Shown here: positions 9,059 to 55,963 of the stretch, one piece after another
Layout: every line of letters starts with the position of its first letter
How positions within the stretch are numbered: position 1 is the stretch's first letter
Source: Isurus oxyrinchus
Lineage: Eukaryota
Assembly (NCBI GenBank): GCA_026770705.1
Contig: JANJGN010000012.1
Span: forward strand, 108,810,001 to 108,874,000
Length of the DNA stretch: 64,000 nt
Direction: 5' to 3'
The notes under the pieces: model-generated
Databases searched by the model: none
What the model saw: the letters and a program-made list of their open reading frames with translations, nothing else
What the model was told of the DNA's origin: nothing
Translations under genes and position numbers: made by a program

Positions 9059-10125
9059 TCTGTATGTGCATGCTGCTGAAAGAGAATCAGAATCTAATAG
9101 CCTAAGCCTTCAAATATATTGGTGGAGCAATGAAACTTCAAGCTAAATCAATCACAAATTAAGATTTAAAATTGGAAATGTCTGACAAGGAATTATAATT
9201 TCAAAGCTTACTAACAGTAAGAAGCCATATGTCAGTACTCTACATGTGTGGGCACTCATTAGCACAGAAAAGGCTTAAATCTTCCAACTGTTTCCAAAAT
9301 ATAATGAAAGAGGCAATGTTTAGTTCCATTTTAGCGAACTGATATACGGTGCCAAAAAGCGAGAGGATTTAGCTCCAAATTCTTACATTCTTCTCAGTTC
9401 CTCTTTTGAGTTGCACAGTGCAGTGAGGCATCACATGGAGACCAGACATTTGACTGTTGGAAGAGGGAGATTAGATGAGGAGCTCCTGTTGAGTGTTTCC
9501 TGGCAACCAGAGGAGCAGTAATGTTGATTTGGGTGCAGTCCATTACTTCTGGCCACCAAGCCCTTGGCAAGAAAACAAATGGTGTGGGAGGGCTTATGAT
9601 GAAGAAAAATATCTAAGACTAGATGTCCTTCATTAGAGCACTCATTAAAGAGTTTCCCATTTGCTTTGTAGTTTGTCAAACAGCTAGTAACATAATTATA
9701 ATCTCCTTAGGAAATTCAACCAGCAACCATGCCATCGGCTAACACCAACATAATTTTTTTTTTGCAACTGTCTTCACAGTATATAATCACAGATCAGTTA
9801 CAAGGTCTCTCTTACCAGTTTGTTTTACCTTTCTGTTCACGAGTCATCCACAGGCCACAATAGAAAATCTTTTGAGTTTTGATTGCCATTTTTAATTCAT
9901 TTTCATTATATTCAACATATTTTTGTAATAAGAGAGTTCCTTGTGTTGTGTTACAAATGCTTTTTTAAACTCCATGAGGTAAATTTCAACCTTCGGGGGT
10001 GTAGAAAACTAGCATTATTGAACTATGCACCTGTTATTCATCCCACCTGATTTGCATCTCTGCTAATTGCTCAGATACCACCAGTTTTCTACCCATTTTA
10101 ATTAGCCCTGTATATTATTCAGCCA

Positions 10126-11312
10126 TCTCAGCCATGGCTCAATGGATAGTACTTGGCCTAAATAGCCAAGTGGTTATGGTACTGGGTTTGTAACCCCAAG
10201 ATCGAGAGTTCAGATCTCACAATGGCAAACTATGAAACAATGTAACTTCATCTGAAACAGATGGAAACGGGTTTGTGCTCAAAAGAGTATCAAGAGTTCA
10301 AATCTCACAATGGCAAACTATGAAACAATGTAACTTCATCTGAAACAGATGGAAACGGATTTGTACTCAAAAGAGTTCCACATTCTTTGGCTTGACTTGA
10401 ATAGCCAAGTGGTTATGGTACTGGGTTTGTAACCCCAAGATCAAGAGTTCAAATCTCACAATGGCAAACTATGAAACAATGTAACTTCATCTGAAACAGA
10501 TGGAAACGGATTTGTACTCAAAAGAGTTCCACATTCTTTGGCTTGACTTGAATAGCCAAGTGGTTATGGTACTGGGTTTGTAACCCCAAGATCAAGAGTT
10601 CAAATCTCACAATGGCAAAACTATGAAACAATGTAACTTCATCTGAAACAGATGGAAACGGGTTTGTGCTCGAAAGAGTATCAAGAGTTCAAATCTCACA
10701 ATGGCAAACTATGCAACAATGTAACTTCATCTGAAACAGATGGAAACGGGTTTGTGCTCGAAAGCGTATCAAGAGTTCCAATCTCACCACGGCAAAACTA
10801 TCAAGAGTTCAAATCTCACAATGGCAAACTATGAAACAATGTAACTTCATCTGAAACAGATGGAAACGTGTTTGTACTCGAAAGAGTTACTTTCATCTGA
10901 GTCAGGAGGTTTTGGGTTCAAGTCCTACTTCTGCACAAAAATCAAGGCTGACCCACCAGTACAGTACTAAAGGGTGCTGCATTGTCAAAGATGCCATCTG
11001 TTAGATGAGACATTAAACCTCGGCCCCAACTGTCCTGTTAGGTAGACTTAAAATATCCCATGGCACTGTTTCGAAGAAACGTAGGAGAATTATCCCCAGT
11101 GTTCTGGCTAATATTTATCCCCCAAGTAACATCGCAAAAACAGATTATCTGGTCATTATCACATTGCTGTTTGCGTGAGCTAGTTGTTGCAAATTGGCTG
11201 CTGAGTTTCCTATAACACATCAGTGTCGACACTTCAAACGTACTTATTTGGCTGTAAAGCACTTTGGGACATCCTAAAGTTAAGAAAAGTGCCACATAAA
11301 TGCATGTTCTTT
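10126..11312 (+). mobile_element. DeuSINE (SacSINE1/AmnSINE-like) interrupted at 10155-10888
   Basis: tRNA-like head split by the insertion (tagtactt|tcatctgagtcaggaggttttgggttcaagtcc); Deu-like core gtgctgcattgtcaaagatgccatctgttagatgagacattaaac...tcccatggcactg; tail ...ataaatgcatgttctttt. Confidence 0.75.
10155..10888 (+). repeat. Modular tandem array of a tRNA-Thr(TGT)-derived unit (39-, 88- and 24-bp modules; 151-bp full unit)
   Basis: Order A-B-B-C-A-B-C-A-B-B-b-B; A box TAGCCAAGTGG, loop TT-TGT-AA, B box GTTCAAATC; flanked by (T)ACTT on both sides. Confidence 0.9.
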
Positions 11313-12199
11313 TTTTTCCCCTTTTCCAACACAAAATAATTCACAAAGCCGAGGACAATTCACTAAAATTGCATGGTATGGTGCACTAGAAACAAATTGA
11401 AGGCATCTCAATACATGGATGAGGAACTCATGTTAAGCAAAGTCCATCTATGAATAGGAAGATGCTAGAAAGATAAATACTGATGAGGTGGGACATTCAA
11501 ACTGTCTAGCTCATTGCATCACTAGAAACCTAGGCCCCTGCACACGAGGACAACTAAGTAGCTTTTAAATAGTTTTCAAACAGTTAAATAAGTTTTTATC
11601 TCCACTTTCATTGCATGCGTTCATCACTTTGTGTGAAAAGATGCTTCTTAACATCAGTCCTGAGCTTGCTTTTTACTAGTTTGCACCCATGCTGAATTTA
11701 ACTCTACCACTACAATTATATTCGTGCAAAGCACACAAAGTCATAAATCTAATCTCATTGGGTAATGCTAAGGAATAATCAGTTTACCGCAGAGAACACA
11801 ATTGGGCCCAATTTCAGCTTGGGCAGACATGGAACAGTCAGCAGGCAGTGCCCACCCCATGTCCTCAACAAGAGGACTGAGCCATTTTGATATTTTGATC
11901 TTGCCTGCATAATGCCAGCAAGCAGCAAGCACTCGACCAGCACTTACAGGTAGCTCAATGGTTGGGGTTTGGTGGGCAGATTTGGTGGGGAGAGACTGAG
12001 AAATCTAGTTTCCTCTGAGGATCCAAACTGGAAGTTTAATGTTAATAGGGGAAATGCAAATTGAATGGTGAGGAGAAGGAGGAAGGAAATGGGCAGATAG
12101 GCTTCCAGCAGTCTAGCTTCACAAAAATCTATGAAAATCAGAAACTTACCTGGTTTAAGCAGCCTGCAGGACACGGATCAGCTATATTGCTGCTATAGC

Positions 12200-12622
12200 T
12201 GGGGAGAGATATTGTCACTGGACTAGTATTCCAGGGACCCAGGGTAATGTTCTGGGGATCTGGGTTTGAATCCCACCATGGCAGATGGTGAAATTTGAAT
12301 TTAATAAAAATCTGGAATTAAAATTCTAATGATGACCTTGAAGCCACTGTCTGGTTCAATGCCATTTAGGAAAGGAAATCTGCTGTCTTTACCTGGTCTG
12401 GTCCACATGTGACTCCAGGTCCATGGCAATGTGATTGACTCTGAAATGGCCTAGCAAGCCACTCAGTTGTATCTAACCAATACAGAAAATTGGATACTGT
12501 GGGTGTATCTACAATACATGGGCTGCAGCAGTTCAAGAAGGCAGCTCTCATGGGCAATTAAGGATGGGCAATAAATGCTGGCCTAGCCAGCAAAGTCCAC
12601 ATCCCATGAATGAACTTAAAAA
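12200..12622 (+). mobile_element. tRNA-derived SINE sharing its 3' tail with LINE family B
   Basis: B-box-like gggtttgaatccc; body aggaaatctgctgtctttacctggtctgg; tail gggcaattaaggatgggcaataaatgctggcc; related copies at 46420-46760 and 60195-60465. Confidence 0.75.
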
Positions 12623-20278: not shown

Positions 20279-22983
20279 TAAGTCTCTTGACGGGGGTGGG
20301 GAGGAAGGTGGGGAGTGTTTTCTGCTGCGGAGGCTACTGGGAATTCACGTGGTATCGTGTGACCACAGCCACATTAATTATGCAGTTGGGATTTTCCCAA
20401 TGTATTGTGTGGTGGGGCGGGCTGAATGGCGCACTCCCCGCCATCATATTCGGATGCCATATGTAAAAGGTGCCCAGACAGCAACTTACTAACAATGCTA
20501 ATTGAGGTGGCAAGAAGAGGACTGGAACCTCCGGCGCTAAGGCTGACTTAGCATGTTCCTCGACCAGGTGGAGGCCAGGAGGGATATGCTGTAGCCAGCT
20601 GATGGGAGAAGGAGGCTAAGCAGGGAGACCAACTCTGCATGGGAGCAGGATGCCACCACAGTCAGTACCCAGGGCCTCCAGCACAGGTCAGACCTCTAAT
20701 GGTGGAAGAGGATGAATGACCTCATCCGTGCAGCCAGGGTAAGTGAACCCACAGTCGCTCACATTAACCACAATGAATGGTAGAGAGGACATGGGTTCTG
20801 TGGCAGCACCATCAGGTCATGCTTCGTAACCCCACTGAAGTCCATCCACTCTGCAGGTGGAGAGGCCACTATGTGTCCCTCACCCTTCCACACAGAGAGC
20901 TCACAATGCAGTCTGGTAGGGAGGGGAGGGGGAAGTCAGGATATGGAGCTCAGGCATTGAGGGCACCAGCAAGCTCTGCAAATGACATGGCTCTCTGAAG
21001 CTCCTTGAGGGGAAGGGGCATCAGGAGGGAGATCGAGGTGCTCCACCCGCCTATCACATAGCCACGGCAGAAGCTCCGCTATGGCTCCCGCAGTGGAGTG
21101 CAGGTCTGCACACATCTTCAGCAGAATCTCCTGGACTAGGATCCACGGAGCCTGCCATCCTCCCCATGGAGACCTTGATGTGTGCACGTCAGCACCACTT
21201 CATCAGCCAGCAGGCCGTCAGCCTCCTCCACCTTGTGTGCCATCCATTGAGGACACCTGACATATCTACCTGATGTTCCCTCACCTCTTGCTGACTCTCC
21301 AGCATCATTTGGGAGGCCAATTCCAGAGGCCCGTCATCAGACTCGCACCTCGCAGATGCCTCTTCCCCAAACGTTGGCCCACAGCAGGACAGCCAAAATA
21401 AGCTGGGGCCTTCCAGGCCTCAGGTCTCCAGAGAACGGCCGCCAAGGTTATCCAAGACAACAGGGCCAACTGGTCAGCAGGCTGCCTCTACCCATGCTGC
21501 GGAATTCAGGGGAGCACTTAGAAGAAATGGTAGGGAGAGGAAAATTAAGAAATACTGAAATCACAATTGGTTGCACAAGTGCACTATTGAATGTCACAGA
21601 TAGCAAACTTTTGTATATATGTTGACTTTTACTTTAATCACATCCAATGTGTAGTTTAAGCTATAATCCTTAAGTCTGAGTGCTCCCCACCGTATCCTTG
21701 CATATTGATGGGCTCACCGCTCTGGAGGGTGGTGGCCTGAACCCTTCTGGACAACCTGCAGTACATTAATGAGATACCACACAATCCAGTGAGTTATCTC
21801 TAAGACTGGAAGCATGAGAAAGATACGTGAAATTGTTAGATGTAATCGGATGCTAAATACAATTCCTTCCAACCCTATCTTCTCTGTGCTCTTTGAGCTG
21901 GGCAAGTTAAGCCATAACCGGCGAGGGAGGGAGAAAACAGAAGGAGGTCGGTCACACACGAAAGAAGTGACAGAGTTCGAGAAGCAGGCAGCCCAGCTGG
22001 CAGGGCTAGGGCGGGTCCGGCCATTGGAGATGAAGAGACTGGATTTGGGCCTCCAACCAGGAAGAATAAATGCATGTCATAGAAACCACAGGGCCAAGGG
22101 TGCCTCCATGTTAGAGGCAGCTCATGCTGTCACTCACTCTCTCCTCTCTCAGTTATGCCTGCCGCCAGGAAGAAGGCAGGAAGCTCCGACACAAGCCCAA
22201 ATCCGGAGAAGAGCGAGGACATCATAGAAACCGTAGAGGCATCACGACAGACACCTCTACCCTCCACCAGCCCAGGGACACACACCTCGGTGGGTATTAG
22301 CTCTAATGTAAGAAGGGTCTCAGACCCTGGTGGTCACCACATAGACACGCGTCCGCAGCAGGAGGAGGCAGGATCAACCAAGATCATCGGTATTTGCCAG
22401 GACCCTTGCGAGCCTTATGCAAGTAGTCTCCAGTGCAAACTGAGCCTTTGGCCTTCAGGCTCCCAAGGCCCTAGCATTGCGAAGGCTACATGCTGGTGTT
22501 CCCCTTCAGTTGTCCAGTTGAAATGACCTGCATCGTTGCCCATCCCCGATGAACCAATTCGCATGCTCCCCATAGTTGCGACCAGTTGAGCCATAGTGAT
22601 AGTGATCTTCTATCTTCACTCCAACACCTTTTCCCTTCATTCAGTCACCACACTCTCCTCCCCATAACCATTGGCCCCCTGGTATAATGGCCAGAATTTT
22701 CTGTTTGACGGGCGGGCGGGCCCAACTGACTCAGCAGCAGGCAGGCAGCCGATTGCCGCCGCCGAAACGGGCTGCGCCGCCATTTTCCGTGGGCGAGCCA
22801 ATTAAGGCGGGTTAGCGACTCCCGTGGAGAACGGGAAAATAGTCACGGGGCGGGCGGCTTCAGACTGTCGGTTCCAATGGGGAGCCGGCAGCCTGTATAA
22901 AGAGTGGCCAGGCAGCCTGCTTGCAGCAGTGCACCATAGCCACTCGGAGAGAGAGGAAGGGAGCTGTGGTTTCAGAGGAACTT

Positions 22984-24515
22984 GAGCAGGAGGATGGGGG
23001 CAGGCTACAGGAGAGGCCAGCAGGGGGCCACTGTGCCCCTCGATTCTCCGATGCAAGCGTTGCTGTCCTCCTCCAAGTGGTTTCCAGCCGTCGGCATGTG
23101 TTGTATCTGGAGGATGGGAGGATGAAGGCCCCCCCCCCTGTCACCAGCCAGGCGTGGGAAGAGGTTGGTGATGCTGTGAGTGCCCATGAAGATGTGCGGC
23201 GCACTGGCACCCAGTGCAGAAAAAGATTCTATGATTTGCTGCGCTCTGGAAGGGTGAGTTCCATGTCGGCCTTGGGCATTTGACCCAGAAGATAGCCTTA
23301 GCTTTTGAGCACACCCCACTCCCCCCACCATGTCTTGCTGTCATTACTGCATTGGGCATTTGGTGCACACTGGGTGGGCAACGGGTACTGACCATGCTTA
23401 CATCAGCCTTAGTGGTTGAGGAGAAGATGGGTTCTCCCCGCAGCATATGTTGGTGTTTGTGGCATTTGAGTAGTCTGGGGGCAACCTGCAGGGGAGGCAG
23501 CTAGACACATACTCAGAACTCCAACACATTGTCATATTGATGGTGATGAGATGGTAGAAGGGGAGCCTCAAGGTGTTTTGGCCAAATGCCATCTGCTGAC
23601 ATCGGCGCCGCACCTAGTTGTGCCTCGTTGCCATGGACGCTAAGACCCGTGTGTTATTCAAATTGATGGACGACGAATGTGTCCAAGGCGGCCATTGGGA
23701 GAGGGGGTTGGGAGCAGCTGTACTATCTTCTGGGGACTGATCACCAGCAGTGTCGACAGGTGCCGCTGGAGGCCTCAGATCAGCCACTGTGGATGGAGTG
23801 CGGTGTGCGCGTGCAGAGTACATGAGCGATCAGCCTCAATAAATGGTCTCTGTTCTGCAGGCAAAAAGTCAACACAATATGCAGGAGCACCAGAGGACTG
23901 GAGGTGCAAGTGGCAGGAAGCGCGTTTGCATCTGGCTGGGTTGCATGAGGGTGTGCTTCAGTTGGTCTCTCCAGTGGAGGAGTCCAGGCAGAGTGCACGT
24001 GAAGGCATGAACGGCATGAACCTCAGGGCAAAGCTTCACACTTCCCTCTACTGAGAGATTGGTGACTCTCATGGAGAGGGGGTTCAATCGGATGGAAAAT
24101 CTTCTGATTGGGTTACGCTCTGACCTGCAAGCCCTCAGTGGTAATAACCACGGGTGGTCATTCCCAATGTGGGAGATGTTATGGGCACCAAGCGTCAGCG
24201 CTCGGTTCCCCTGCATCTGTGTTGAGCAGGGAGGTCGAAAGGGACCTCACGACGCAGCAGGTGCCTGTCGTCGCTGCCAGTTCTTCTCAGGGCACTCTGG
24301 ATGAGGGCAGCAGCTCCTCCGCCCCTCTGCCAGTCAGCGTTGCTTCCGTTGAGGCTGCGACAACTGGGGAGGTGCCAGTTCAGGCCAGAGGACGCCCGCC
24401 AAGGTCACTGGTGCCAACAGGACAGCAGAGTCAGCAGGCTGTCTCACAAGCCACTCTGACCTATGGGGCAGCACCTAGACGTAGCACCCGAAAACGTACG
24501 CATAAGGCACGTTAG
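22984..24515 (+). pseudogene. Harbinger Myb/SANT-like DNA-binding protein gene (disrupted)
   Basis: PRFSD...AWEEV...RTGTQCRKRFYDL; donor after 23253 (gtgagt), acceptor before 23861 (ctgcag) continuing AKSQHNMQEHQRTGG; basic C-terminus RRSTRKRTHKAR; frameshifts in between. Confidence 0.82.
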
Positions 24516-26062: not shown

Positions 26063-26899
26063 ACCCAGGGTAAATGGAGGCCTCCGGAAAGCTGCAGGTC
26101 CAAGAAAGATTACTGTCTGCAGACTGGTTTCAATGTACACAAAAAGGTCTTGGAAATCGACGTGAACTGCTAACAATCAAACAGACAACTTTTAAACACT
26201 TTCAGCAATTAAAACTTTGTGTAAAACATGAACAACACCTCTGAGTCCACTTATCCCGCCAGTGCATGACTTTTATTAAAAAATCTCCTACCCACCTGCC
26301 CGTTGGGCCCGTGTGCTGACCCGAAGTTCGCACGGGCCCCTCAAAATCCTGGACAATTGGCAAGTTAAGGGCCTTAACAAGGCCTTTAATTAATGGTGGG
26401 TGAGCGTCCACTGCTGAGCGCGCCCGCCGACCGAAATATCGTGATGCCGCACGCTGACGCTGGGACGCTCACGCGACATTTTAAGCGCTGACGTGTAGGC
26501 TCCGCCACCTACACGCCAGCCGGAAAATTCTGCCAATGTTTGACATCCCCACTGTCACCCTTCAACCTTCCCCCAACACCTTCAGAACGTTCTGATTAAT
26601 GTTGAAGTCCCCTTCCTCCCAGAGAATCCCATACTCCTCATCCTGCCCACCTGCCGAATCTGTGCCCATCTACATAACCCCAACAACAAGCCTCAGCACC
26701 CCTTCATGCGAAATCATCGTACCCTCACCCTCCGACCCTACCGGCTCTCACTGCCCCTTTTAACTCTCACCATACTCTTCTACCATGGTTACCCTCAGTT
26801 TGCATTCTAGGAATCCATCATTGACTCCACTGACTGCTCCCTGTGAACCCCTTCACATCTCTATGTCCCCCACTCCTCTTGAGACCACTACACCCCCGC

Positions 26900-27080
26900 A
26901 TATCCCTTCAGACCTCTATAATCTCCCATGCCATTTCAGACCTCCACACCCCCTCATATCCCTTCTACCTCTATGCCCCTCATGCCCCTTCAGACCTTTA
27001 AACGCTCATGCAACTTCAGACCTCTACAACCTCCACACCACTTCAGACATCTTCACATCCCCATGCGACTTCAGACCTGC
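26900..27080. repeat. Imperfect C-rich minisatellite (cttcagacctcta...)
   Basis: About six ttcagac motifs at irregular 20-55 bp spacing. Confidence 0.55.
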
Positions 27081-28299
27081 ATAAGACCCACCCCCACCAC
27101 CCACAACCCAACACGATCTTCCCACCCTCCCACTCACTTCCAGCTGACCCATTGAAGGACCCTCTCTGATTCCCTCTTCCTCCAGCACTCCCAACCTCCC
27201 TCGGCCCCCTCTAGGCTTGAAACCCCGCTCCACCTCTTCATTCCTCTCCTACTGCCTTTCACCCCCTCACCCCGCCCCCCACCCCCCACAACAACAACAG
27301 ATCCTTGCCGCCCAACAATACCGCCTGACGTCTTCCACCTGCAACTGGGAGATCTGATTATTGGGCAAATTCTCTGAATGAAGATCCAATCCCTAGGCAA
27401 AGTCTCCGAATGAAGGTCCAATCCCCTGGTGAAGTCTCTGCATGAAGATCCGATCCCTGGGCAAAGCTGCTGTTCCAAGAATAACCACCACCTGGATGCT
27501 ACTTCATGGAGATGATCCATGTGGTTGATGCTCCACCCATGCCGTGCTGCACATGGTGTTCCAGGGTCCAGTTGCTGGAGGCCTTCACCTTGTCCTCATC
27601 TCCGCGAGTTGCCCAAGGCTTTCTTAAGGTAAGGCCCAACTTTGACACATTGTGTTGGTCCAGACATGTTCTGGACCGGTGTGGTTTCCCACTGGCATCA
27701 CAGAGAATCGGGCATGGGGATGATTCCAGTTGGGACTTCATCTGCATCTCATTAGCAGGATGCAAATCGGTACCACGCCAGCCTCTGGTGGGAAATATAA
27801 CCCGCCATAGTGGGCAGTAGCAGAAGATCCCACCGTCATTTTATACCTGTGTGAAACCAATTTTTGGACCTCCCCCACTGCCCACCATTAAGCCAGCTGA
27901 GTGGGGGCAAGGGGAAATTCCATCCATTGTCCATGCCCAGGACAAGATTTTGATAGACTCATCCAAAATAAGGTTGTGGAGAAGGGTGGAATTTTTCTGG
28001 ATAAATTATGGAAATATCTAGACTGTGGAAATGTCTAGAGTGGAGATTGGGAAGCTGTGGACATGAGGCTGGACCAACAATTGAAAAGCAAAGCAAAGGA
28101 GTGGAGAAGCATCCATTGGGCAGGAAACAATTAAGGGCAAGTTGCAGAAGATAAAAGGAAGGGGGAAATTCTGGAGAATGGGGAACAAGAAGCCAGGGGA
28201 GATGAAGGATGAAGTTGGAATAGAGTGGGCAACAAATGGCCAACAATGGGCAAGAGGAGCTCAGGTCTGAGAGTACCAGAATGCGCACAGAGAGATAGA

Positions 28300-33758: not shown

Positions 33759-34958
33759 CTAGAAATAAGTAACAGGAAACAAGTTAGGCGTCCCTTGCAT
33801 TGGCTGCCTATAATCAGATTTATTCCCATCAATGGTAACACAGCCATGACCTTAAGATCTAACCTGAATGATAAAATCTAGGAATATATCTGAACAACTG
33901 AGGCAAGAAGTGTTTTTCAAAGGTTGAAGAATGTCTGTGTGTGTACCCCTGACTAACTCACCCCCTCACTCTTATTATACTTGGGCTTTCAGTCCACACT
34001 GATACATTTGACAGTAATGTTGGCATTCTGGAGGGATGAAATCAAATGGGCCAAAGATCTTTTTTCATTCTTTCATGATGGAATTGCTGACTAGGCCAGC
34101 ATTTATTCTCCATCCCTAATTGCCCTTGAGAAGGCGGTGGTGAGCTGCCTACTTGAATTGCTGCAATTTAAAAAATTATAGAGGAGATTATTCAATCCAT
34201 TTTCCTGCACCTGCTTTCTAAAAGAGCTCTCCTGTTAATGCCATTCCTGTGGACTTTCCCCAAACTCTTTTACAGTTCACTTTTTACAAATATTTATCCA
34301 TTTCCTTTTTAAACATTATTATGGATTCACTACAGAAGTGTCTCTAATAGGACATTGTATGTCCCCACAATCCTCTGTACAAAAAAGAAATGGTCCTAAC
34401 CTCTCTTAAGAATCCAACCATTTGTCTTTGACATTCAGTGGCACTGCTGAATCCTCCACTATCAGCATCCTGGGAATTACCATTGACTATTAAATGAACT
34501 GGGCCAGCCATATAAATACTGTGGCTACAAGAGCAGGTGAGAGGCTGGGAATTCTGCAGAGAGTAGCTCATCTCCTGATTCCCCAAAGCCTGACCACCAC
34601 ATACAAGTCAGGAATGTGATAGAATACTCTCCACTCACTTGGATGAGTGCAGTCCAGCAACACTCAAGAAGCTTGAAGCCATCAAGCAGCTTGCTTGATT
34701 AGCACCCCATCCATCACCTTCAACATCCATTCCCTCCATCACCAATGCACAGTGGCAGCAGTGTGTACCATCTGCAAGATGAACTGCAGCAACTAACCTA
34801 GGCTCCTTTGACAGCATCTTCCAAACCCATGACCTCTACAACACCACCACCTGAAAGTTCCGCTCCAAGCCACAACCATCCTCACTAGGAACTAAAACAA
34901 AAAACAGAATTACCTGGAAAAACTCAGCAGGTCTGGCAGCATCGGCGGAGAAGAAAAG

Positions 34959-34997
34959 AGTTGACGTTTCGAGTCCTCATGACCCTTCGACAGAACT
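34959..34997 (-). ncRNA. Minimal hammerhead motif (CUGUCGA variant)
   Basis: Exact reverse complement of 180-218. Confidence 0.7.
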
Positions 34998-35833
34998 TGA
35001 TTTCGAGTCCAGGAAAGAGTTGAAATATAAGCTGGTTTAAGGTGTGTGTGTGGGGGGGGGGAGGAGAGAGAGAGAGAGACAGAGGTGATTGTGTAGACAA
35101 ACAAGCAGTGATAGAAGCAGATCATCAAAAGATGTCAGTAACAATGGTACAGAAGAACACATAGGTGTTAAAGTTAAAGTTGGTGATATTATCTAAACGA
35201 ATGTGCTAATTAAGAATGGATGGTAGGGCACTCAAGGTACAGCTCTAGTGGGGGTGGGGGGAGCATAAAAGATTTTAAAATATTTAAAAATAATGGAGAT
35301 AGGTGGGAAAAGAAAAATCTATAAAATTTATAGGGAAAGAAAAAGGGGGAAAAAAGGGGGAAACAGAAAGGGGGTGGGGATGGGGGAGGGAGCTCACGAC
35401 CTAAAGTTATTGAATTCAATAACTTTAGGTCGTGAGCTCCCTCCCCCATCCCCACCCCCTTTCTGTTTCCCCCTTTTTTCCCCCTTTTTTTTTTCCCTAT
35501 AAATTTTATAGATTTTTCTTTTCCCACCTATCTCCATTATTTTTAAATATTTTAAAATCTTTTATGCTCCCCCCACCCCCACTAGAGCTGTACCTTGAGT
35601 GCCCTACCATCCATTCTTAATTAGCACATTCGTTTAGATAATATCACCAACTTTAACTTTAACACCTATGTGTTCTTCTGTACCATTGTTACTGACATCT
35701 TTTGATGATCTGCTTCTATCACTGCTTGTTTGTCTACACAAGCACCTCTGTCTCTCTCTCTCTCTCCTCCCCCCCCCCCACACACACACCTTAAACCAGC
35801 TTATATTTCAACTCTTTCCTGGACTCGAAATCA

Positions 35834-35872
35834 AGTTCTGTCGAAGGGTCATGAGGACTCGAAACGTCAACT
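35834..35872 (+). ncRNA. Minimal hammerhead motif (CUGUCGA variant)
   Basis: Identical to 180-218. Confidence 0.7.
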
Positions 35873-36572
35873 CTTTTCTTCTCCGCCGATGCTGCCAGAC
35901 CTGCTGAGTTTTTCCAGGTAATTCTGTTTTTTGTTTTGGATTTCCAGCATCCGCAGTTTTCTTTGTTTTCAACTCACTAGGAACTATATCACTGTGCCTT
36001 CAACGTCGCTGGTCAAAATCCAGGAACTCCCTTCCTAACAGCACTGTGTGTGTCCCTACAACACATGGACTGCAGTGGTTCAAGAAGACAGCTCTCCACC
36101 ACCTTTCCAAGGGGACTTAGGGATGGGCAATAAATGCTGGCCTAGCCAGTGATGCCCACTTCCCATTAAAGAATAAGAACAACTCACTCCTAATCCTTTT
36201 TTTGATCATTTTAAACTCATATTCTTACTGATCAGTGGAACTCACTTTGAGCTATCCATTGTTGGATGAACACTTAACTAATAGGCTGCTAACATGAATC
36301 CTATATTTCTATAAACCAGGCCAAAATCAGTTACTAACTGAATGTATTGGAAAATCTTGAATTTAAAGCATTAGAAAATTAAAGCATCATATGGTAAATG
36401 AATTAATCAACATCAGGGCAAACTATAAATGGGAAAAGATTTCCAGAACATTGATTTTGAAAAATGCTGTGTTTTCACATTCAAGCAATGAAGCAAACAA
36501 CATTTTTTACACAAGTGTAAGCAGACACCCAAGTACATTTTAAACAAGTATACTACTCAGAAATCCTTCTAC

Positions 36573-36755: not shown

Positions 36756-39700
36756 CTGCAAAACAGCAATTTGCTTAGTCAAAACAGTCTGGTCACTTTG
36801 TGCTGTTCCACTTCTAGAATTATATTAGTATTCCACAATTGGAGATGCTGGAGCACTGACTAGCACGGTGAAGCACACGCTGGTCTTTCACTTCTTAAAC
36901 CTGGATAGCAATCCAACCCAGACCAACAGAATGAAAGTCTCATTGCTTTAGTGTTTGTAAGCGTCATATCTGAAATGAATTTAGGTTTGAGCTCCTAGTG
37001 GATAAGCCCTGAGATGGTGTCTTAGTTATGCTGCATCAAATTGCATTCTAATTGCCTGACCTGGAAATGTTCCACAGAGGCAAATATATATGTCCAACTA
37101 TTTTCCTTTATAATCATATTTAATGACTCCACATTTCATATTTACATCAGCTTTTTCATGAGCACTGATTGGAGGGAAATATAGCACTCTAAAAATAAGT
37201 TCTTCAGGGTTGCATGGGAGTTAAAATATTAAAAATCGCAAACCCAAATCCAACCCTTTGCAAACTTAAAGCCTGTTTTATTGGAGGTGAGACGAGGCCC
37301 GAATAACCAACTGTTAAATTTGGCATGACCTGAGAGATATCCGTTCACCCAGAAACCCGTTCTTCCAGATTTCCTGACTGCAAAACAACACCCTGCTGCC
37401 ACCACACCACCACCACCCCCCCACCACCCCCCACCCCCACCCCCACCCCCACCCGCCCAATGCCCTGCAACTCTCTTTTCAACTCCAAGCTATTATCAAG
37501 GCCATACATTCTGCAGAAAATGTACTTTTCTTATATAGGATCAGAAAGGCTACTGGTCTCTTCAACGTTTTACTTAAAGGATACATTTTTTCTAGTTGAT
37601 CGTCAGCCCTTAAACCTTTTTGTACCAGAAATCAGGAAAGTTGACAGCACCATATCCTACAATGAAGCTATCGAACTAGTTTATCAAATACTTATGCTTG
37701 GCCCTTAGCCAATAAATCATATATGTTTAAACTTGTCACAAGAGCATTTGCGTGTTATAGAGAACTGATCCCTAATGAACATTCTGGTTCAGGCAGGAAA
37801 ACATTAATTGTTGCCAGATTTAAAGGGAGGAGAGAGAAATAGAGAGCCCAAAGGGTTTAGGGTAGGAGCACCAGCAGTGGAGCCAAGGTGGCTGAAAACT
37901 GCCACTAAGGAATTTAGTGAAAACAGTGCAGCTCCCAAGGTTGGGACCAGAAGTGGGCCCCACTTCCACATGCATCTTGGTGGCAGAGGGGGCAGACATT
38001 TCCTGTCTGCCCCCACCATCACCAGATTCAACTGTAGATCGGGTGAGCTAGAAAAGGCTTGCCCCTCCAAGCGTCCAATTGCTGTAGGCAGGAAGGAGCA
38101 GGAGGCAGCTGGGGGGCAAGATATTCCAATTGCAATGCCTCTAAAGCATTGTTTCTGAAACCACAGACTGCACCCCCCCCTTTGCAGCTTTTGTCAATTA
38201 AGCTCCCTCGCTCCTCCCCTCTTCCCCCCGCTCCATCCCTTCTCTAAAACAACAATAGCAAGCATCTTCCGGGACCCCTTTCACTCCACTCTCTCCTCTG
38301 CAGCAGTCATCTTCTGGCATAAACATCAGTACCCCCATCCCCAGCAGCACCATGTCGGGTTCCAAGGCTCCCTGAAGATTCCACTCCAAGCTGTCCGGGA
38401 ACAGTGGGAGGTGCTCTTCCCAAAGGATGGCAATAGAAGATCCTCCCACTTTGACCAAGGCAGGCCTGAGCGGAGATTGTGGAGGAGATGAGCATCTGTG
38501 AGGTCCAGCAGTGGACATGGGTGCAGCGTCACAAAAGGGTCAACAACCTCCTCCAATCCGCCAGAGTAAATGGCAACGTGGTGTTGCATCAAAAGGCCTC
38601 TTGTGAACGTATCAAGCAATGGAACTTTGCAGGTGAGGAGAGAGAGGATAGGCTGGAAAATGCATGGTCATCCTCAGGATCGCATAGCACTTTAGACCAT
38701 GTGACAGTTGTGCTTGATAAGGTGATTGGGTACCAGTTAGAATGTGGGAAACGTATGTGGCAAGGGAATGCATGGGGACAAAGGAATTAGATGTCTCTTG
38801 ACATGCCACAAAGTCTCCACTTTGCTCATGCAGGATAAGATCAGCTTCAACTCCAATGGAAGGACCAAGGTGGGGAGAAGTGTTCCAAAGTTGAAAGTTT
38901 TGATGGCATGTAAGGAGGAAGTTTCAGAGGATCGAGGGGATGCAGGGCAGCTGTTCCACTGCGGACAGTGAGGCTAGATTAGCCAGGCAGTTGAGTGAGA
39001 ATGCCTCCAACCTGGTGTTAAGATATGGGCACACAAGGGACATGTATGAAACTGTGGTGTCCTGATAGACTGTCCTTCTCCTTAATGTCCTTCTTTCTGT
39101 TCGTCACTTCAGGTCATTGCCATAGGGTGCAAAGGTCCCCGCCCATTGAACAAAGTGACGACTCCAATTCTGGGGATGGTGACCAACAATATTTAGATGA
39201 TGCACTGTCATCTGCCCCTCCGTCATCATTTAGTCACACGGATCTCAGATGGTGCATGTGTAGAATCAGGGTCACAGACATGTGTCAGCAGCTGAGGAAG
39301 GTTGTGTCAGCTGAGGTCACTAACAGTGGGATAACTGATGGATTAGGCCCATGATAAACCCCAGGCTGATAATGGTCCTCTGATCTCAGCCAAAATAAGT
39401 CTATGGGAGATGCAGAGACAAGCAGGGGAAACTCTGGCAGAGGTGCCAGAGGCTAAGCAGAACCTTGGGCAGAGAGTGAAGGAGTTCAGCCAAGCCTCGA
39501 GTTCTGCCATGGCTCCGGCATGTGAGCTTCCTCCATGGAGTGGTTGCCGACTGCCATAGAGAGCCAGGTCTAACATACGACTCATATACACTCAGACCTA
39601 CATTCTGTCACTCAGACACCATGGACTCTATACATCAGTGGCTAGGCGAGAGGAGCATGAGGCACCTGGACCTCCCACCAGGCACCCCTTCTGCTCAGGG

Positions 39701-40019
39701 TTACAGAGAGGTGCCATTGCACACCGAGAGCGAGGGGGAGCACCAGCCAGCCACACCGAGATTGTTCTCTCAGGGCGCTCGCAGGTTGAGCGGCTGCTCC
39801 AGTAGGCAGGGCCAAAGGGGGTGCCTTTACACCCGTGCAGGAGACCCCAAGTAGGCTGGAGCCCTCAAGGCCTCGGCTGCTAAGGTGATCGCATGCAATG
39901 GGGCTTTGTTCACAGCAGGCTGCCCTCAGCTGTGGATGTTGGGGTTGCACACCAAGGCAGAAAAGGAAAGTTAAAACATTTTTAGGGCATAATGGTGGCA
40001 CAGGTATTCAGACAATGTA

Positions 40020-40436
40020 CAAGGGCACCACATCCACAAACATTCACTCCCTCCACCACTGATGCACAGTAGCAGCAGTGTGTACCATCTATAAGGTGCA
40101 CTGCAGGAATTCATCAAGGCTCCTTAGACAGCACCTTCCAAACCCACGACCACTACAATCTAGAAGGACAAGGGCAGCAGATAGATGGGAACACCATCAC
40201 CTGGAAGTTCCCCTTCAAGTCACTCACTATCCTGACTTGGAAATATATCACCGTTCCTTCACTGTCGCTGGGTCAAAATCCTGGAACTCCCTTCCTAATA
40301 GCACTGTGTGTGTACCTACACCACATGGACTGCAGCAGTTCAAGAAGGCAACTCACCACCACCTTCTCAAGGGCAACTAGGGATGGGCAATAAATGCTGT
40401 CCCAGCCAGCGAAGCCCAAATCCCATGAATAAAAAG
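40020..40436 (+). mobile_element. LINE family B 3' fragment
   Basis: CTIYKVHCRNSSRLLRQHLPNPRPL...SFTVAGSKSWNSLP...FKKATHHHLLKGN plus tail. Confidence 0.85.
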
Positions 40437-41384
40437 AAGTTCTTCACATATGTAAAGGTTCATATCATATTTGTTTCACTTGATCATGTGCATTTTTTAG
40501 TATGTATGAATTCAGACGGAATATTGTACTATCATGTTTCATGGTTGGCAATCATTGATAAATGAAAGCTACTGAGAGAAATCTCACATGTAGTGGCAAC
40601 ATTGTCGCAATGTGTTCACATTCAGTGTTTATTGCATGGTCAAATGTGCAACTTCATTTGTATTCTCAAGGCATTGCAATATGACTGAATATGCTACCTG
40701 TGGTGGTCCTTCCAAATATGCCGTGCTAAGGAGAGTGGCTGAAGTTACTTGCTGCTATGATAAGATATGTGCTGTTTGTGTACTCATGGCCATGTCACTG
40801 TGGGCAAGGATCAAGAAACTCACTCATAATAGCTTCAGTGACTTACTTGCAAGTGCAAAACCTACATCCTGGAGTCAGTCTTATCTTTTGATTTTGTGCA
40901 ATAAACATCCACTTCCCTTGACTTTTTAGGGGGTAGAGGACAAGGGTAGTGAGGTAGCTCTTGGTGGAGGGTGACAGAGATGGATGCACATTCAAAGCAT
41001 GCAATGATTTGCAGACCATGTACTGCTGATCAGGTAGGTGCCTCATTCCTGTACAAATCAATTAAATAAGAGCAGATCTCTGATAGCACTGGCACTTCTC
41101 TCCATTGCCCTGGCACCTTGGAAAGGGTGATTTCTTGAGCCTCTTCCTCATATTTCTCTCTGTTATCCCCATCTGAGGAGGAGAGCAGCTCCTCCATGTC
41201 CTTGTCCGGTAATTCCTCTCCTCATTGCAATGCCACATTGTGCAACACACAGCAGACCACGACAATTCTGGATACGCTAGGTCTGCAGCACGTATTGCAA
41301 TGCTCCGCTAGATTGTGCAGGCAGCAGAAGCACATTTTCAGCAAGCCAATGGTCTGCTCTACAATTGTTCTGGTCAGGAGCTGA

Positions 41385-42637
41385 GTGGTCTGCCAAGGCC
41401 ACTCAGCTCCTGACCTCATTACAGCCTTGGTTCAAACATGGGCAAAAGAGCTGAGCTCCAGAAGGGTCATGAGAATGACTGCCCTTGACATCAAGGCCGA
41501 TTTTGACCAAGTGTTGCATCAAGGAGCCCTATCAAAACTGGAGCCAATGGGAATCAGGGGAAAGCTCTCTGCTGGTTGGAGTCATACATACACAAAAGAA
41601 GATGGTTGTGGTTGTTGGAGGTCAATCATCTCAGTTCCAGGATATCACTGCTGGAGTTCCTCAGGGTAGTGTCCTAGGCCCAACCATCTTCAGCTGCTTC
41701 ATCAATGATCTTCCTTCCATCATAAGGTTAGAAGTGGGGAAGTTCACTGATGATTGCAGAATGTTCAGAACCATTTGTGACTTGTCAGATACTGAAGCAG
41801 TCCCATGTCTAAATACAGCAAGACTTGGACAATATCCAGGCTTGGACTGACAAGTGGCAAATAACATTCACACCACACAAGTGACAGGCAATGACCATCT
41901 TCAACAAGAGAGAATCTAACCATCGCTCCTTGACATTCAATGGCATTGTCATCCCTGAATCCCTCACTATCAACATCCTCGGGATTACAGTTGACCATAA
42001 ACTGAACTAGACTAGCCATATAAATACTGTGGCTACAAGAGCTGGTCAGAGACTAGGAATCCTGCAGCGAGTAACTCACCTCCTGACTCCCCAAAGCTTG
42101 TCCACCATCTACAAGGCACAAGTCAGGAATATGATGGAATACTCTCCACTGACCTGGATGAGTGCAGCTCCAAAATCACTAAGAAGCTTGACAGCATCCA
42201 GGACAAAGCAGCCAGCTTGATTGGCACCCCATCCACAAAGATTCACTGCATCCAGCACTGTCGCACAGTTACAGCAGTGTGTACCATCTACAAGATGCAG
42301 TTCAGCAACTCATCAGACTCCTTAGACAGCACCTTCCAAACCCACGACAGCTACCATCTAGGACAAGGGCAGCAGACACATGGGAACAACACCACGTGGA
42401 AGTTCCTCTCCAAGCCATTCACTATCTTGACTTGGAAATATATCACCTTTCCTTTACTGTCACTGGGTCAAAATCCTGGAACTCCCTTCATAACAGCACT
42501 GTGAGTGTACCTACACCAAATGGACTGCAGCCGTTCAAGAAGGCAGCTCACCACCATCTTCTCAAGGGCAACTAGGGATGGACAATAAATGCTGGCCCAA
42601 CCAGCAATGCCACATCCAATGAATGAATAAAAGAAAA
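41385..42637 (+). mobile_element. LINE family B (CR1/L2 group), RT to 3' end
   Basis: RT motifs ALDIKADFD, GVPQGSVLGPTIFSCFINDL, FTDD; IYKAQVRNMMEYSP. Confidence 0.9.
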
Positions 42638-43816
42638 TCCATGTGCTGCCTTCCAACACTCCCCCACAAGGCTGTGGGGATGATGGAGGGAATAGCCCTT
42701 GTCACCCAGGAGGGGCCTCATGTGGCTCTCGGAGCTAGGAGTTGCGTAAATGAAAACTCCCTGGGAAAAAAGCAAAGACCTGAGTAATTTATTTCTGTGG
42801 TTGCAGGCTATTTAAGGGAGTGAAAGTTCTTGTTTCACAAATGCAGCTGGTTGTTCCCAGGGAGTTCAAATGGCCACACAAGTGCAGTCAATCACCCTCT
42901 GACTCCCCAAACTTGTCCACTATCTACAAGGCACAAGTCAGGATTGTGATGGAATACTCTCCAATGGCCTGGATGAGTGCAGCTCCAAAATCACTCAAGA
43001 AGCTTGACCCTGTGGGAATCACACTGCTCTTGTGACTTGGCATTGGTTGTGAACTGAATGCCCCTTCTGAATGAGTCACTGGCACAGAAATTCAATGCCA
43101 CAGTCACCTTGAGGGCAACTGGCAAAGGGTTCTCTCCAAATCCATGGAGCTGCAGGGTTTATTGAAGGAGCGTGCACTGGTCAGTGACTGCCTCCCAGGA
43201 AAGCCTGAGCCATCTCCGGCACTACCTGTCAGACATTTGAAGGTAGTTGGTACGCGGTCTGAGCATGCGCTGACACGCCAATGCTCATCGATGATGATGA
43301 CAGCTGTGGTTACCTCCGTCCTGACCTCCTCTCCCTTGGCTGGTGTCAGCTGATGGTCTTGTGGCTTATTTTGTTGTTTGGTGACAGCTCTCCTCTGACT
43401 TTATTTCAAGAGCTTTCAACATGGGGAAACCCAAATTTTGGCTCCCACCTAATTAAGTCCTCCCCCCAACCTGCCTCGTTTCCAACTCCCAGAGGCCCCA
43501 TTAAATTCCAATCTAAGGGTGAGGAGTGGTGGGGGGACCTAAGGAGGAGAGGGACAACACAAAAAGTCAAGGTTAAATAACTAAATTACGTGGGTGTGGG
43601 GGCAGGGGTAGATATAAAGCTGGAGGAGACAGTGGAGATGGGTAGAGATGCAATGTTTCAGCTTAATAAATTGGAGGATTCAGTGTGAGGATGGGGAATG
43701 ATGGAACTGTGTGGAACAGGATATGTGTGGCTCCATTTATAAATGTAAAAGACATAAGTAAAGGTCCCTATTAAAAAGATAGGTTTAATGAAAATCTGTT
43801 GTCGCAGTTTCCTCAC

Positions 43817-43995: not shown

Positions 43996-46047
43996 CTGTC
44001 AATGTGTAGAGATATAAAAATCCTGAAATGAATATAGTTTGGAAGCTAGGACATTCTAGACCACTCTACTAATGGGCATCAACATCACCTTGTGCTAACC
44101 TGATAGAAAGCATGAATTCAACAAGCACAATAGGCAGGCCCATTAATCGTTGCTCTTCTGGCTGGGCTTCAAATACCACCAAGCCCAAAACATATTAAGC
44201 AATCTCCTGCAATCTGGAATGTGTGTGCCCATAAAAAATAAACCCACTTATCAGTCTGAGCTAGCTTCTGCGTATCTGCAATACATAAAAGATGAAGGGA
44301 CACCATTAATCGCCCTTCATGCAAACATAAACGTCACCAAATAAAGAAATAAATGGATATATCAGCAGTATTTACTGTGATTTTACAAGCCTCCAAAGTA
44401 CTGACTTTATTATTTGGTAGTTAGAATTATAGAATGATACAACACAGGAGGAGGCCATTCAGCTCATTATGCCTGCGGCAGATTTTGGTAGAGCTTTCCC
44501 TCAACCCTGCTCTTTCTGCATGGCCTTGAATATTTTTCCTTCAAATATTTACCCAATTCTCTTTTGAATGTTACTATTGAATTGGCTTTCACCACATTTT
44601 CAAGCAGTGCATTCCAGATCACAGCAAATCGCTGTGTAAAAAAATGCTTCCTCATGGTTCTTTTGCTCATTAATTGTGTGTCCTCTGGTTACTGGAAACC
44701 ATTTCTCCTTCTTTATTCCTATCAAAAATGTTCATGAATTTGAGCACCTCAGATTAACTCTTAACCTTCTTTGCTATAAGGATAATAAACACAGCTTCTC
44801 CAATCTCTCCACATAACTGAAATCCCTCATCTCTGGTACCATTCCAGTAAATCTTTCTTGTACCCTTGGCAGGTCCTTGACATCCTTCCTAAAGTGTGGT
44901 GCCCAGAAATGAACATAAAACTCCAAAAGAGACTAAACAGTTATTTCATAAATGTTTAGCATAGCTTCCTTGCTTTTGTACTCTATTCCTCTAGTAATAA
45001 AACCAAGGATCTATAGGCTATTTCTGGCAGCCTTCTCACCTTGTCCTGCCATCTTCAAAGATTTGTGTACATATATCCCTAAGACCACTTTGTTCTTGCG
45101 CCCCCTTTAACATCGTACCATTTAGTTTATATTGCTTCTCCTCATTCTTCCTACCAAAATGCAACACTTCACATTTCCCAGTGTTAAATTTCATCTGCTT
45201 TGTCTGCTATCTGCTATCCATTTCACCAATTTATGTCCTTCCATAGTCCTTTACTATCTTACAGATAGATTTTTGGTCTCTCAGGGAATGAGCAGGGAGG
45301 TGGAACTGATCAAGCCCAAGATTAGCTATAATCATACTGAATGGCAGAGCAGGCTTGACAGACCATATGGTCTACTCCTGCGCCTACTTCTTGTGCTCTT
45401 GTGTTCCTCATCACTTATTACATTTCCCACTCACAAGGAAAAAACATTCAGACCATCGCTCTTATTTCCCAGTTTTTACTGGTCTTCTGTTTTAAGTTAT
45501 ACAAGACCAGTTCAGACCAGTATTATTTCCCTTTTTTTACTGTTTTTTTCATTCTGGGCAGTTTTGTATCATTTGCAAATTTTTGAAATTATGCTATGAA
45601 AACCCAGTCTAAGCCATTAATAAATAGCAAAGAGATCAGTGGTCCTTCCGATTCCTGGGGAACATCACTGTATATTTCCCTGCAGTCTTGAAAACAATTG
45701 TTCAGCACTGCTCTTTTTTCTGTCCCTTAGCCAATTTTGTACTCCTGCAGCCATTGTCCCTTTAATCCCATGGACTTTCATTGTACTAATAAGTCTATGC
45801 TGTGGTACGTTGTCAAAGTGCCTCAAACGCCTTTTGAAAGTGCATATAGACAACGTGAACCACATGATGTTCATCAACCTTTCCACCACTTCACCAAAGA
45901 ACATAATCAAGGTAGTCAAACATGATTAGACTTTAATAAAACCAGAGATAAAAACAAGACAAAACTGCGGATGCTGGAAATCCAAAACAAAAACAGAATT
46001 ACCTGGAAAAACTCAGCAGGTCTGGCAGCATCGGCGGAGAAGAAAAG

Positions 46048-46086
46048 AGTTGACGTTTCGAGTCCTCATGACCCTTCGACAGAACT
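46048..46086 (-). ncRNA. Minimal hammerhead motif (CUGUCGA variant)
   Basis: Exact reverse complement of 180-218. Confidence 0.7.
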
Positions 46087-46223
46087 TGATTTCGAGTCCA
46101 AGAAAGAGTTGAAATATAAGCTGGTTTAAGGTGTGTGTGTGGGGCGGAGAGATAGGGACTCTCCGCCCCACACACACACCTTAAACCAGCTTATATTTCA
46201 ACTCTTTCTTGGACTCGAAATCA

Positions 46224-46262
46224 AGTTCTGTCGAAGGGTCATGAGGACTCGAAACGTCAACT
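46224..46262 (+). ncRNA. Minimal hammerhead motif (CUGUCGA variant)
   Basis: Identical to 180-218. Confidence 0.7.
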
Positions 46263-46419
46263 CTTTTCTTCTCCGCCGATGCTGCCAGACCTGCTGAGTT
46301 TTTCCAGGTAATTCTGTTTTTGTTTTAATAAAACCATGCTGGCTTTCATTTCTTAGCTAATACATTTCTAAATGACAATTAATTTTGTTCCCAATTTTTG
46401 GCTCTAAAAAGATTGTGCA

Positions 46420-46760
46420 GGGAAGATGGTGGCATAGTGGTAATTTCACTGGACTAGTAATCCAGAGGCCCAGGTCTATGCTCTGGGGACTTGTGTTCAA
46501 ATCCCACTATAGTAGCTGGTGAAATTTAAATTCAATTAATAACTCTGGAATACAAAGCTAGCCGCAGTCATGGTGGCCATAACATTGATTGTTGTAAAAA
46601 CCCATCTGGTTCACGGGTGCCCTTTAGGGAAGGAAATCTGCCATCCTTACCCAGTCTGGCCTACATGTGACTCAAGGCCCATAGCAAAGTGGTTGACTCA
46701 ACTGTTGCCTGCAATGGCCTAGCAAGCCACTCAGTTCAAGGGCAATTAGGGATGAGCAAG
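46420..46760 (+). mobile_element. tRNA-derived SINE (family B partner)
   Basis: A box tggcatagtgg, B box gttcaaatc; homologous to 12200-12622. Confidence 0.78.
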
Positions 46761-47594: not shown

Positions 47595-48026
47595 AAGAAA
47601 GAACTTGCAGTTATAGAGTATCTTTCACAAACTCTGGATGTCACAAAGCATTTTACAGCTAATGAGGTAACTTTCAAGTGTAGTTACTGATTTGATGTAG
47701 GAAAATGCAACAGCCAAGTTACATCCAGCAAGATCTGAGAAAACAGCAATGAGATAATAATCAGATGATCTGTTTTAGCAATATTGGTTGAGGAATAAAT
47801 ATTGGCAAGACACCTGGAGAACTCCCCTGTTCTTCATTGAATAGTGCCACGGGATCTTTTACATGCAACGAGGAGGCAGAGAAGCCTTAGTTCAACATCT
47901 CATAAATAAGCCAGCACCTCTGACAGTGCAGCACTCACTTCATACTACATTTTGAGGTGCAACATGAACCCATTATCTTCTGATTAAGAAGTTAGAGTGC
48001 TATCACTGAGTCAAGGCTGACACCAT
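47595..48026 (-). mobile_element. DeuSINE copy
   Basis: Reverse-complement similarity to 10890-11312. Confidence 0.72.
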
Positions 48027-55467: not shown

Positions 55468-55963
55468 CTTGCCTGGATGAGTGCAGCGCCAACAACACTC
55501 AAGAAGCTTGGCATCATCCAGGACAAAGCTGTCCATTTGATTGGCACCCCTTCCATAAACATTCACCCCCTCCACTACCAACGATCAGTGGCAGCACTGT
55601 GTACCATCTACAAAATGCACTGCAGAAACTCACCAAGGCTCCTTAGGCAGCACCTTCCAAATCCACGACTTCTACCATTTGGAAGGACACGGGCAGTAGG
55701 TACATGGGAATACCGCCACCTGGCAGTTGCCCTCCAAGCCACTCAGCATCCTGACTTGGAAATAAATTGTTGTTCCTTCACTGTCGCTGGGTCAAAATCC
55801 TGGAACTCCCTTCCTAACAGCACTGTGGGTGTACTTATACCACAAGGGCTGCAGCAGCTCAAGAAGGTAGCTCACCACCACCTTGTCAAAGGCAATTAGG
55901 GGTTGGCAATAAAAGTTGGCCTAACCACAACACCCACATCCCGTAAATGAATTTAAAAAAAAA
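55468..55963 (+). mobile_element. LINE family B 3' fragment
   Basis: ORF 55456-55899 LAWMSAAPTTLKKL...SWNSLPNSTVG...HHHLVKGN plus poly-A tail. Confidence 0.88.

Follow-up and report, generated by a model that had tools for sequence, protein, structure and literature searches.

Architectures intermediate between SINE and satellite have already been described, since squamate sSat repeats, bivalve SINE multimers, Dip multimers and amphibian Pol III repeats are published. The snake satellite sSat3 has a unit of 67 nt that corresponds to SINE positions 42-108 and includes box B, both SINE termini are retained in a minor sSat variant, subvariants can alternate, and in some units there are 14-44 nt whose origin is unknown (PMC10702118); that paper makes no claim of block retroposition. 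The amphibian repeats PolIII/TAN, OAX, Rana/polIII and Hy/polIII, as summarised in the same source, have long been known; they are head-to-tail arrays whose Pol III promoter resembles that of a tRNA and for which no parent SINE is known, with units of about 200-360 nt or longer and in some cases very high abundance. In bivalves, tandem SINE multimers take the forms TSD1-(SINE)n-TSD1 and TSD1-(SINE-TSD1)n, the former being described in the blood clam (PMC11481361). Dip forms head-to-tail multimers of up to eight units, and B2, Dip and Ves carry internal moderate terminators of the TCTTT type together with AATAAA signals and A-tails (PMC8466645). Helenus TRIMs have a tRNA-like promoter in a direct repeat, occur in tandem arrays and produce 4-bp TSDs in animals (PMC10886601), and non-LTR retrozymes consist of short tandem units of low GC content, each defined by a type I hammerhead (PMC7229834, 10.64898/2026.07.22.740005).

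The locus described here lies in a 64-kb window of Isurus oxyrinchus DNA, sequenced without N, and consists of a 733-base tRNA-derived tandem array (10155-10887) nested in an older mobile element. Like squamate sSat it is a tandem of part of a tRNA-derived SINE-like sequence, with a leading unit that extends to tRNA position 1; its module B, like sSat3, starts in the 3' part of the head and includes box B, and its module C resembles the sSat segments of unknown origin. Unlike sSat, the array mixes two unit types, keeps three full promoters, lacks a LINE-derived region or tail, is nested in a SINE and has no identified parent SINE. In the bivalve multimers, as here, the first unit has the whole tRNA head, the internal units begin at a constant point within the head, and a single flanking repeat encloses the block. 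Their last unit ends in a full tail, which the array lacks, and no conserved central domain was identified in the array. It differs from the amphibian repeats in being short, mixed, bounded by defined ends and placed inside another element. The array has the internal terminator motif of B2, Dip and Ves without their AATAAA signals and A-tails, and the promoter-in-repeat arrangement of Helenus without TG...CA ends, primer-binding site or polypurine tract. It has the unit size and base composition of non-LTR retrozymes without their hammerhead. No named family matched the array in the collections searched, its architecture is a known one, and it would work like a SINE multimer that lacks the typical tail. 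It most likely adds one more example to the SINE-to-satellite continuum, with no report for this clade found in the literature searched, and would help in annotating repeats and serve as a presence/absence marker.

All modules lie on the plus strand, in the order 7-nt head, A1, B1, B2, C1, A2, B3, C2, A3, B4, B5, partial b6 and B7. Module A (39 bp) starts at 10162, 10401 and 10552 with three identical copies, and module C (24 bp) at 10377 and 10528 with two. Module B starts at 10201, 10289, 10440, 10591, 10680 and 10800, the last copy ending at 10887, and a 32-bp partial stands at 10768. The copy at 10591 is 89 bp long through one extra A; B2 and B3 are identical, and the remaining 14 of the 15 B pairs differ at 3-5 positions. 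These coordinates and the near-identity of the modules were given in an initial annotation of this DNA, and all of them check. Tandem Repeats Finder (TRF) reports periods of 88, 151, 88 and 32 with scores of 324, 752, 380 and 102. Other arrays in the window score at most 161, which places this array far beyond chance.

The first unit opens with the 5' strand of a tRNA acceptor stem (10155-10161, by Rfam tRNA mapping), followed in A1 (10162-10200) by the A box, the D arm and an anticodon arm that is Thr-like in its loop centre UGU. B1 (10201-10288) supplies the B box, the acceptor 3' strand and a 60-nt body with two hairpins, one of 8 bp and a terminal 4-bp tetraloop hairpin. B2 (10289-10376) is an internal repeat that starts from about tRNA position 47 and has an intact B box. 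C1 (10377-10400) consists of a 17-nt trailer with TCTTT at 10384-10388, then a 7-nt variant head, and C2 (10528-10551) is the same, with TCTTT at 10535-10539. Between them, A2 and B3 (10401-10527) form the complete head and body of unit 2. A3 and the 89-bp B4 (10552-10679) form the head and body of unit 3, followed by the 120 additional bases of B5 and b6 (10680-10799) and by B7 (10800-10887), where the array stops at the terminal hairpin. The first head differs from the internal heads (10394-10400 and 10545-10551) at three of seven positions.

Positions 1-71 of the Rfam tRNA model align to 10156-10227 with 24.9 bits (E 0.011), and positions 8-63 align to the two internal heads with 22.6 bits each (E up to 0.048), all below the cut-off of 29. 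The left end of the array corresponds to tRNA position 1; module A spans tRNA positions of about 7-46, and module B begins near position 47. The A and B boxes stand at tRNA spacing, with a T8-G53 span of 46 nt, and the B-box pattern is matched by five of the seven B starts. Four of the seven acceptor-stem pairs are non-standard and the head escapes ARAGORN even when the threshold is lowered to 70%, and we therefore regard the head as a promoter-bearing relic rather than a tRNA gene. The earlier description as a tRNA-Thr-derived Pol III unit holds for the tRNA-derived head and its first base, and 'Thr-like' is a fair term that comes from the UGU loop centre alone. The three A+B promoter sets of that description likewise have their boxes, but in the first set the invariant tRNA A58 of the B box has become G (B1 position 13). 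We also observed a short inverted repeat over the A box, of 7 bp at the left junction (10151-10171), where it includes bases of the supposed TSD, and of 6 bp at each of the C-A junctions (as at 10387-10408). A second tRNA-like fold over B-C was rejected, as calling it took a threshold reduced to 80% or less, and at that level 14 of 200 shuffles were called too; a scan for bacterial promoters, irrelevant here, returned chance levels.

In both C modules TCTTT starts 8 nt past the end of B, and the C trailer folds back on that end. In B2 SINE constructs in HeLa cells, TCTTT stopped 50% and TTTT 65% of Pol III transcripts (PMC8466645). Because every C holds a TCTTT, each unit is likely a self-contained leaky gene, and by analogy A-B-C is likely a complete leaky Pol III unit that would yield monomers of about 145 nt and partial read-through, the efficiency figure being one from mammalian cells. 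At 50% termination, monomers and read-through multimers would both be expected. The initial annotation had noted that the plus strand has no TTTT before 10910; this is true (it is the only one within 10100-11000), although TTCTTT precedes it at 10383 and 10534, inside both C modules. Free read-through into multimeric RNA, as then proposed, becomes doubtful with a stop in every C, and the idea is reduced rather than removed, since a leaky stop still permits multimers. The last unit lacks the C trailer and its terminator, which would be expected at the 3' end of an RNA, and the right array end (10887) has neither poly(A) nor a simple-repeat tail. Plus-strand folding is no better than that of shuffled sequences (z -1.28 and -1.53); a 302-nt minus-strand dimer gives z -2.35 (reached by 1 of 100 shuffles), a value to be read with the reservation that a tandem dimer is not comparable to its own shuffles.

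The host is a SINE with a tRNA head and a Deu domain, and by these features and its length it is probably SacSINE1. Its 5' piece (10128-10154, plus strand) was recognised by an A-box pattern at 10135-10145 and by alignment to the head of a second copy at 48020 (minus strand). The remainder (10890-11315, plus strand) holds the anticodon arm, a B box core at 10916, the Deu domain from about 10991 and the tail. The Deu domain matches the AmnSINE1 row of the alignment in PMC7245038, compared by eye, at 22 of 29 positions in 10991-11019 and 13 of 13 in 11055-11067, so that a Deu central domain stands behind a small-RNA head, as in DeuSINEs. Without the insert the host is about 450 bp long, against 463 bp for SacSINE1 (PMC2746220), with which it also has in common the tRNA head and Deu domain (PMC5499810, PMC2746220, PMC7245038); no host consensus was found in the one supplement searched. 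The uninterrupted second copy (47595-48020, minus strand) serves as a proxy for the empty site and aligns with 302 matches, 121 substitutions and 11 gaps. As first described, then, the insertion splits an older DeuSINE between its A and B boxes. CpG observed/expected is 0.43 in the array and 0.25 in the window, and the host is 71% identical to its second copy, which together indicate an old host and a young insert, in agreement with the youth already read from the near-identical modules. We further note that the insertion site is the short gap between the host promoter boxes and that these boxes (10135-10145 and 10915-10925) still fit the consensus, so that the host A box could pair with the B boxes of the insert.

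TACTT occurs at 10150-10154 and at 10888-10892, bracketing the array. The repeat at both ends is as previously observed, but its reading as a target-site duplication is doubtful: once the insert and a single TACTT are taken out, 29 nt separate host position 22 from G53, compared with 31 in the second copy, and with the host left 2 nt short the 5-bp flanking repeat cannot safely be called a TSD. A 4-bp TSD reading is possible and has the same shortfall. A blunt cut that assigns 10154-10889 to the element restores the 31 nt and gives the best alignment (score 71 versus 64); 10888-10889 then count as element sequence, and host sequence starts again at 10890. The last three bases of the left TACTT are also the three bases that precede the internal heads in C. 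By rough arithmetic a 2-nt host deletion at this place has a probability of about 2%, as has a chance 3-base match, and with each coincidence of that order the two readings are about even. The left TACTT is a candidate for either target duplication or junction microhomology, and the right one a candidate duplication. The left junction has 3 bp of identity to C, and the right one 1 bp and a loose match. The end of the terminal hairpin is followed in the array by three different sequences, namely B, C and host, which identifies it as a real module boundary. At the blunt site, the eight bases across the cut (10151-10153 and 10890-10894) are the exact reverse complement of the last eight of the element (10880-10887), a match of at least eight that occurs at 0.4% of 20000 random window sites and at about 2% over the six registers tried. 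A 6/7 copy of this terminal motif lies in C and might have been left over from a previous target.

Patterns of variation within the array bear on how it grew. Positions 10289-10468 and 10440-10619, within which A2 and B3 fall, match perfectly over 180 bp at a period of 151, which suggests a recent local duplication of B-C-A. Without this 151-bp addition and the 120-bp one of B5 and b6, what is left is a pair of 222-bp blocks, each made of head, B and B, with C between them; the blocks differ at 10 of 223 columns (eight transitions, one transversion and one indel). B copies with G77 (B1, B4 and B5) are followed by another B start in all three cases, and those with A77 (B2, B3 and B7) by C or the array end, again in all three. 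This sorting by the following module suggests that the B-B junction was inherited rather than re-made and that it is older than the divergence of the two blocks. At site 81, a CpG, the variants follow position rather than type, a pattern that would need decay or conversion to have occurred repeatedly. Five changes set B5 and b6 apart, each of them to C, and they become denser towards 10799, after which the sequence restarts at a module boundary. A>C accounts for four of these five and for none of the nine substitutions between blocks (Fisher P 0.005, post hoc). The five substitutions to C and one extra A fall within 81 bp (10714-10794), and transitions prevail elsewhere in the array. A low-quality read tail or an error-prone patch is a possible source of this segment, and that the segment alone is an assembly artefact we regard as a minor though real possibility.

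From this anatomy we infer transcription, an RNA intermediate, an enzyme, a source locus and an order of events, in the scenario that we favour and to which we give about an even chance: a SINE-like element of the Pol III type came in as a small multimer, through reverse transcription of a read-through RNA, and then grew locally. Its basic unit of about 145 nt would comprise the tRNA-like head with A and B boxes, the 60-nt hairpin-ended body and the leaky TCTTT trailer. A tandem source locus would have given a read-through RNA that a LINE-type enzyme reverse transcribed, and a pre-formed multimer of two 222-bp blocks joined by a C trailer would have landed between the A and B boxes of the old DeuSINE copy. 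Ordinary DNA duplication would later have inserted one more B-C-A unit of 151 bp, and the 120 bp of B5 and b6 would stem from a further duplication or from an error of assembly. A left end at tRNA position 1 fits a Pol III transcript, and import of a multimer is plausible because the 17-nt C linker is not host sequence, and neither the host nor the rest of the window contains another copy of the trailer. Import is favoured by the start at tRNA position 1, by the foreign origin of the trailer and by the inheritance of the B-B junction. A plain target-primed insertion is harder to reconcile with an array that has no tail and no trailer after its last unit. The doubtful TSD and the lack of a second copy in the window and the collections searched also speak against the scenario, and the short homology to C at both junctions also fits DNA-level capture. 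The B body matched none of the LINE and SINE tails in the window (best score 58, with a shuffled maximum of 50-54 on one strand). The element is short and non-coding with a tRNA head and A/B boxes, as SINE2 elements are, and we file it as SINE-like rather than as a member of a SINE family because the array ends at a hairpin without the tail of those elements.

Several other histories can be weighed against arrival as a multimer. It is conceivable, though in our judgement rather unlikely, that a single SINE monomer of about 134 bp (head and B) inserted and that all multimerisation took place on the spot by slippage, unequal exchange and repair. C would then be a scar assembled at the junction from nearby templates, and the array an incipient SINE-derived satellite. 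The perfect 180-bp identity at period 151 is what such growth would leave, and C may be interpreted as the B end folded back on itself (7-bp stem) and joined to left-junction-like sequence; short sSat loci are also variable, which is attributed to unequal recombination (PMC10702118). Growth in place would nonetheless have to accumulate a block divergence of about 4.5% while A stayed identical in all three copies and one CpG remained intact in all six B copies, the B-B junction does not look like a simple microhomology slip, and recombination between TSDs would give a junction of 12 nt where 24 nt are seen. Growth by local slippage had been named as the case that would overturn a multimeric origin; part of the array does look locally duplicated, and import of a multimer stays plausible. 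Capture as DNA, by templated repair or from a circle and with no RNA step, of a fragment of a tRNA-derived satellite comparable to newt PolIII/TAN, Xenopus OAX or Rana/polIII we consider improbable. Such satellites exist in amphibians (as PMC10702118 reports), and three head+B units with two C modules and no tail, the short homologies to C at the junctions (3 bp on the left, 1 bp and a loose match on the right) and a blunt empty site that restores the 31-nt host spacing are all in keeping with capture, which would leave the left end at tRNA position 1 as a coincidence and the three differences in seven between first and internal heads to be explained.

A topology of n repeats and n-1 spacers, with TG in the same register at three unit starts, also suits a terminal-repeat element, whether a tandem Helenus-type TRIM (LTR of head and B, internal part C) or one with tyrosine-recombinase or Penelope-like mobility, and young terminal repeats that we take to be Penelope-type are present in the window. 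The possible 4-bp flanking repeat and the tandem arrangement agree with animal Helenus (PMC10886601). Its vertebrate entries examined in that source have TG...CA ends and internal parts of at least 43 bp, whereas the right end of the array is not CA and the spacer is 14-17 nt, pyrimidine-rich and, by eye, devoid of a TGG primer site at its start and of a polypurine tract. Three array motifs gave no match in the Helenus supplement, nor did the chondrichthyan class name (PMC10886601). We accordingly give this reading a slim chance. Retrozyme-like propagation, in which a self-cleaving ribozyme would release 151-nt or 88-nt circles for rolling-circle reverse transcription, has in its favour tandem units of suitable size and low GC, unit ends that can pair, and the report of retrozymes in one chondrichthyan genome (10.64898/2026.07.22.740005). 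It is highly improbable here, as Rfam returns no ribozyme family to E 10, no exact hammerhead core exists on either strand, and six one-mismatch cores on the minus strand come without a proper stem II and GAAA. Twister, HDV and pistol motifs are absent as well. The initial annotation had seen no ribozyme, which these searches bear out, and had called the element retrozyme-like, a label that does not survive the defining hammerhead test. We consider it equally far-fetched that the whole array is an assembly artefact: the changes to C in B5 and b6 and the restart at a module boundary have that appearance, whereas the remaining variants are shared between copies, follow module type and consist mostly of transitions, and the host is intact on both sides in a window without N.

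The array would gain in importance if the same B-B and B-C-A junctions occurred at other loci in new flanks, as direct evidence that multimeric Pol III RNAs retropose as blocks without ribozyme or tail, and one route of satellite dispersal would become testable. Selection of the target by the 3' end of the element itself would be unexpected, should it recur at other loci. The fullest version, an undescribed elasmobranch family of tail-less and ribozyme-less Pol III multimers that move as blocks, with TCTTT setting the monomer:multimer ratio and the site chosen by base-pairing of the 3' end, we consider a long shot.

Searches for relatives covered the window, proteins, prokaryotic genomes, plasmids and literature text; they were negative and, with this scope, carry little weight. 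BLAST and local alignment found no second copy of the array beyond chance in the window, and a 27-bp match at 52889 was taken as chance. With a 19-mer, prokaryotic genomes gave five loci against 4.3 expected by chance, none of which extends beyond 22 bp, and plasmids gave no array match. A 56-aa minus-strand stretch had no candidate among proteins of near length and no match in 1.84 billion representatives; a 65-aa plus-strand stretch had two candidates among longer proteins, neither scoring, and Pfam returned no family for the two longest open stretches of the array. These protein negatives are weak, because module B has stops in all six frames. Three motifs searched in literature text matched once, in a ryanodine receptor paper, taken as chance, and the nurse shark NSRE1 and NSRE2 probe sequences showed no resemblance by eye. 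No description of the repeat family was found in the literature, within a coverage that leaves out most subscription journals; the family may already stand in Repbase, Dfam or supplements (those of PMC5499810, the sSat paper or the retrozyme preprint). Descent from an older tRNA-headed SINE (12190 and 46418) looked good when aligned and was rejected, as 788-1723 of 2000 shuffles reached the body scores and 1303 of 2000 the joint body score. Only for the anticodon arm was the outcome marginal, with 20 and 107 of 2000 shuffles, and nhmmer gives E 0.03 at best.

To judge from the host SINE and the other repeats, the window looks like elasmobranch DNA of a non-coding kind. ARAGORN makes a single call in it, a tRNA-Thr (AGT) at 12187-12285, which is not a tRNA gene but the head, with a long extra arm, of that older SINE. 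Copies related to it are found at 46418-46760 and 60235-60467 (minus strand). Among ten long frames, Pfam finds a reverse transcriptase fragment at 41479 (E 3.1e-06) and a Myb/SANT domain at 22843 (E 1.7e-06), and 68 open frames of at least 70 aa that start before 22 kb contain no Pfam-supported gene, in a search that would miss short exons. The Myb/SANT-like region (22843-23280) is presumably of the kind found in Harbinger-type transposons, and a frame at 52100-53300 looks similar without a Pfam match. A very young repeat with 94-99% identity occurs at 1-322, 34894-35170 (minus strand), 35660-35976, 45941-46158 (minus strand) and 46163-46326, the last two forming an inverted pair (45941-46326). 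All five copies hold an identical hammerhead-like core one base off the consensus, and Rfam gives no hammerhead match in 1-400. We assume from its resemblance that this repeat is a Penelope-type terminal repeat; inverted truncated copies have been described for Penelope-type elements. Decayed LINE fragments, presumably CR1-like, lie at 39400-42640 (which includes the reverse transcriptase match), 55366-55965 and 61940-62592, and their common 3' tail recurs in at least eight places of the window. C-rich minisatellites with units of 28/56 bp and 32 bp are located at 26849-26997 and 27364-27466, in a GC-rich block at about 20-28 kb.
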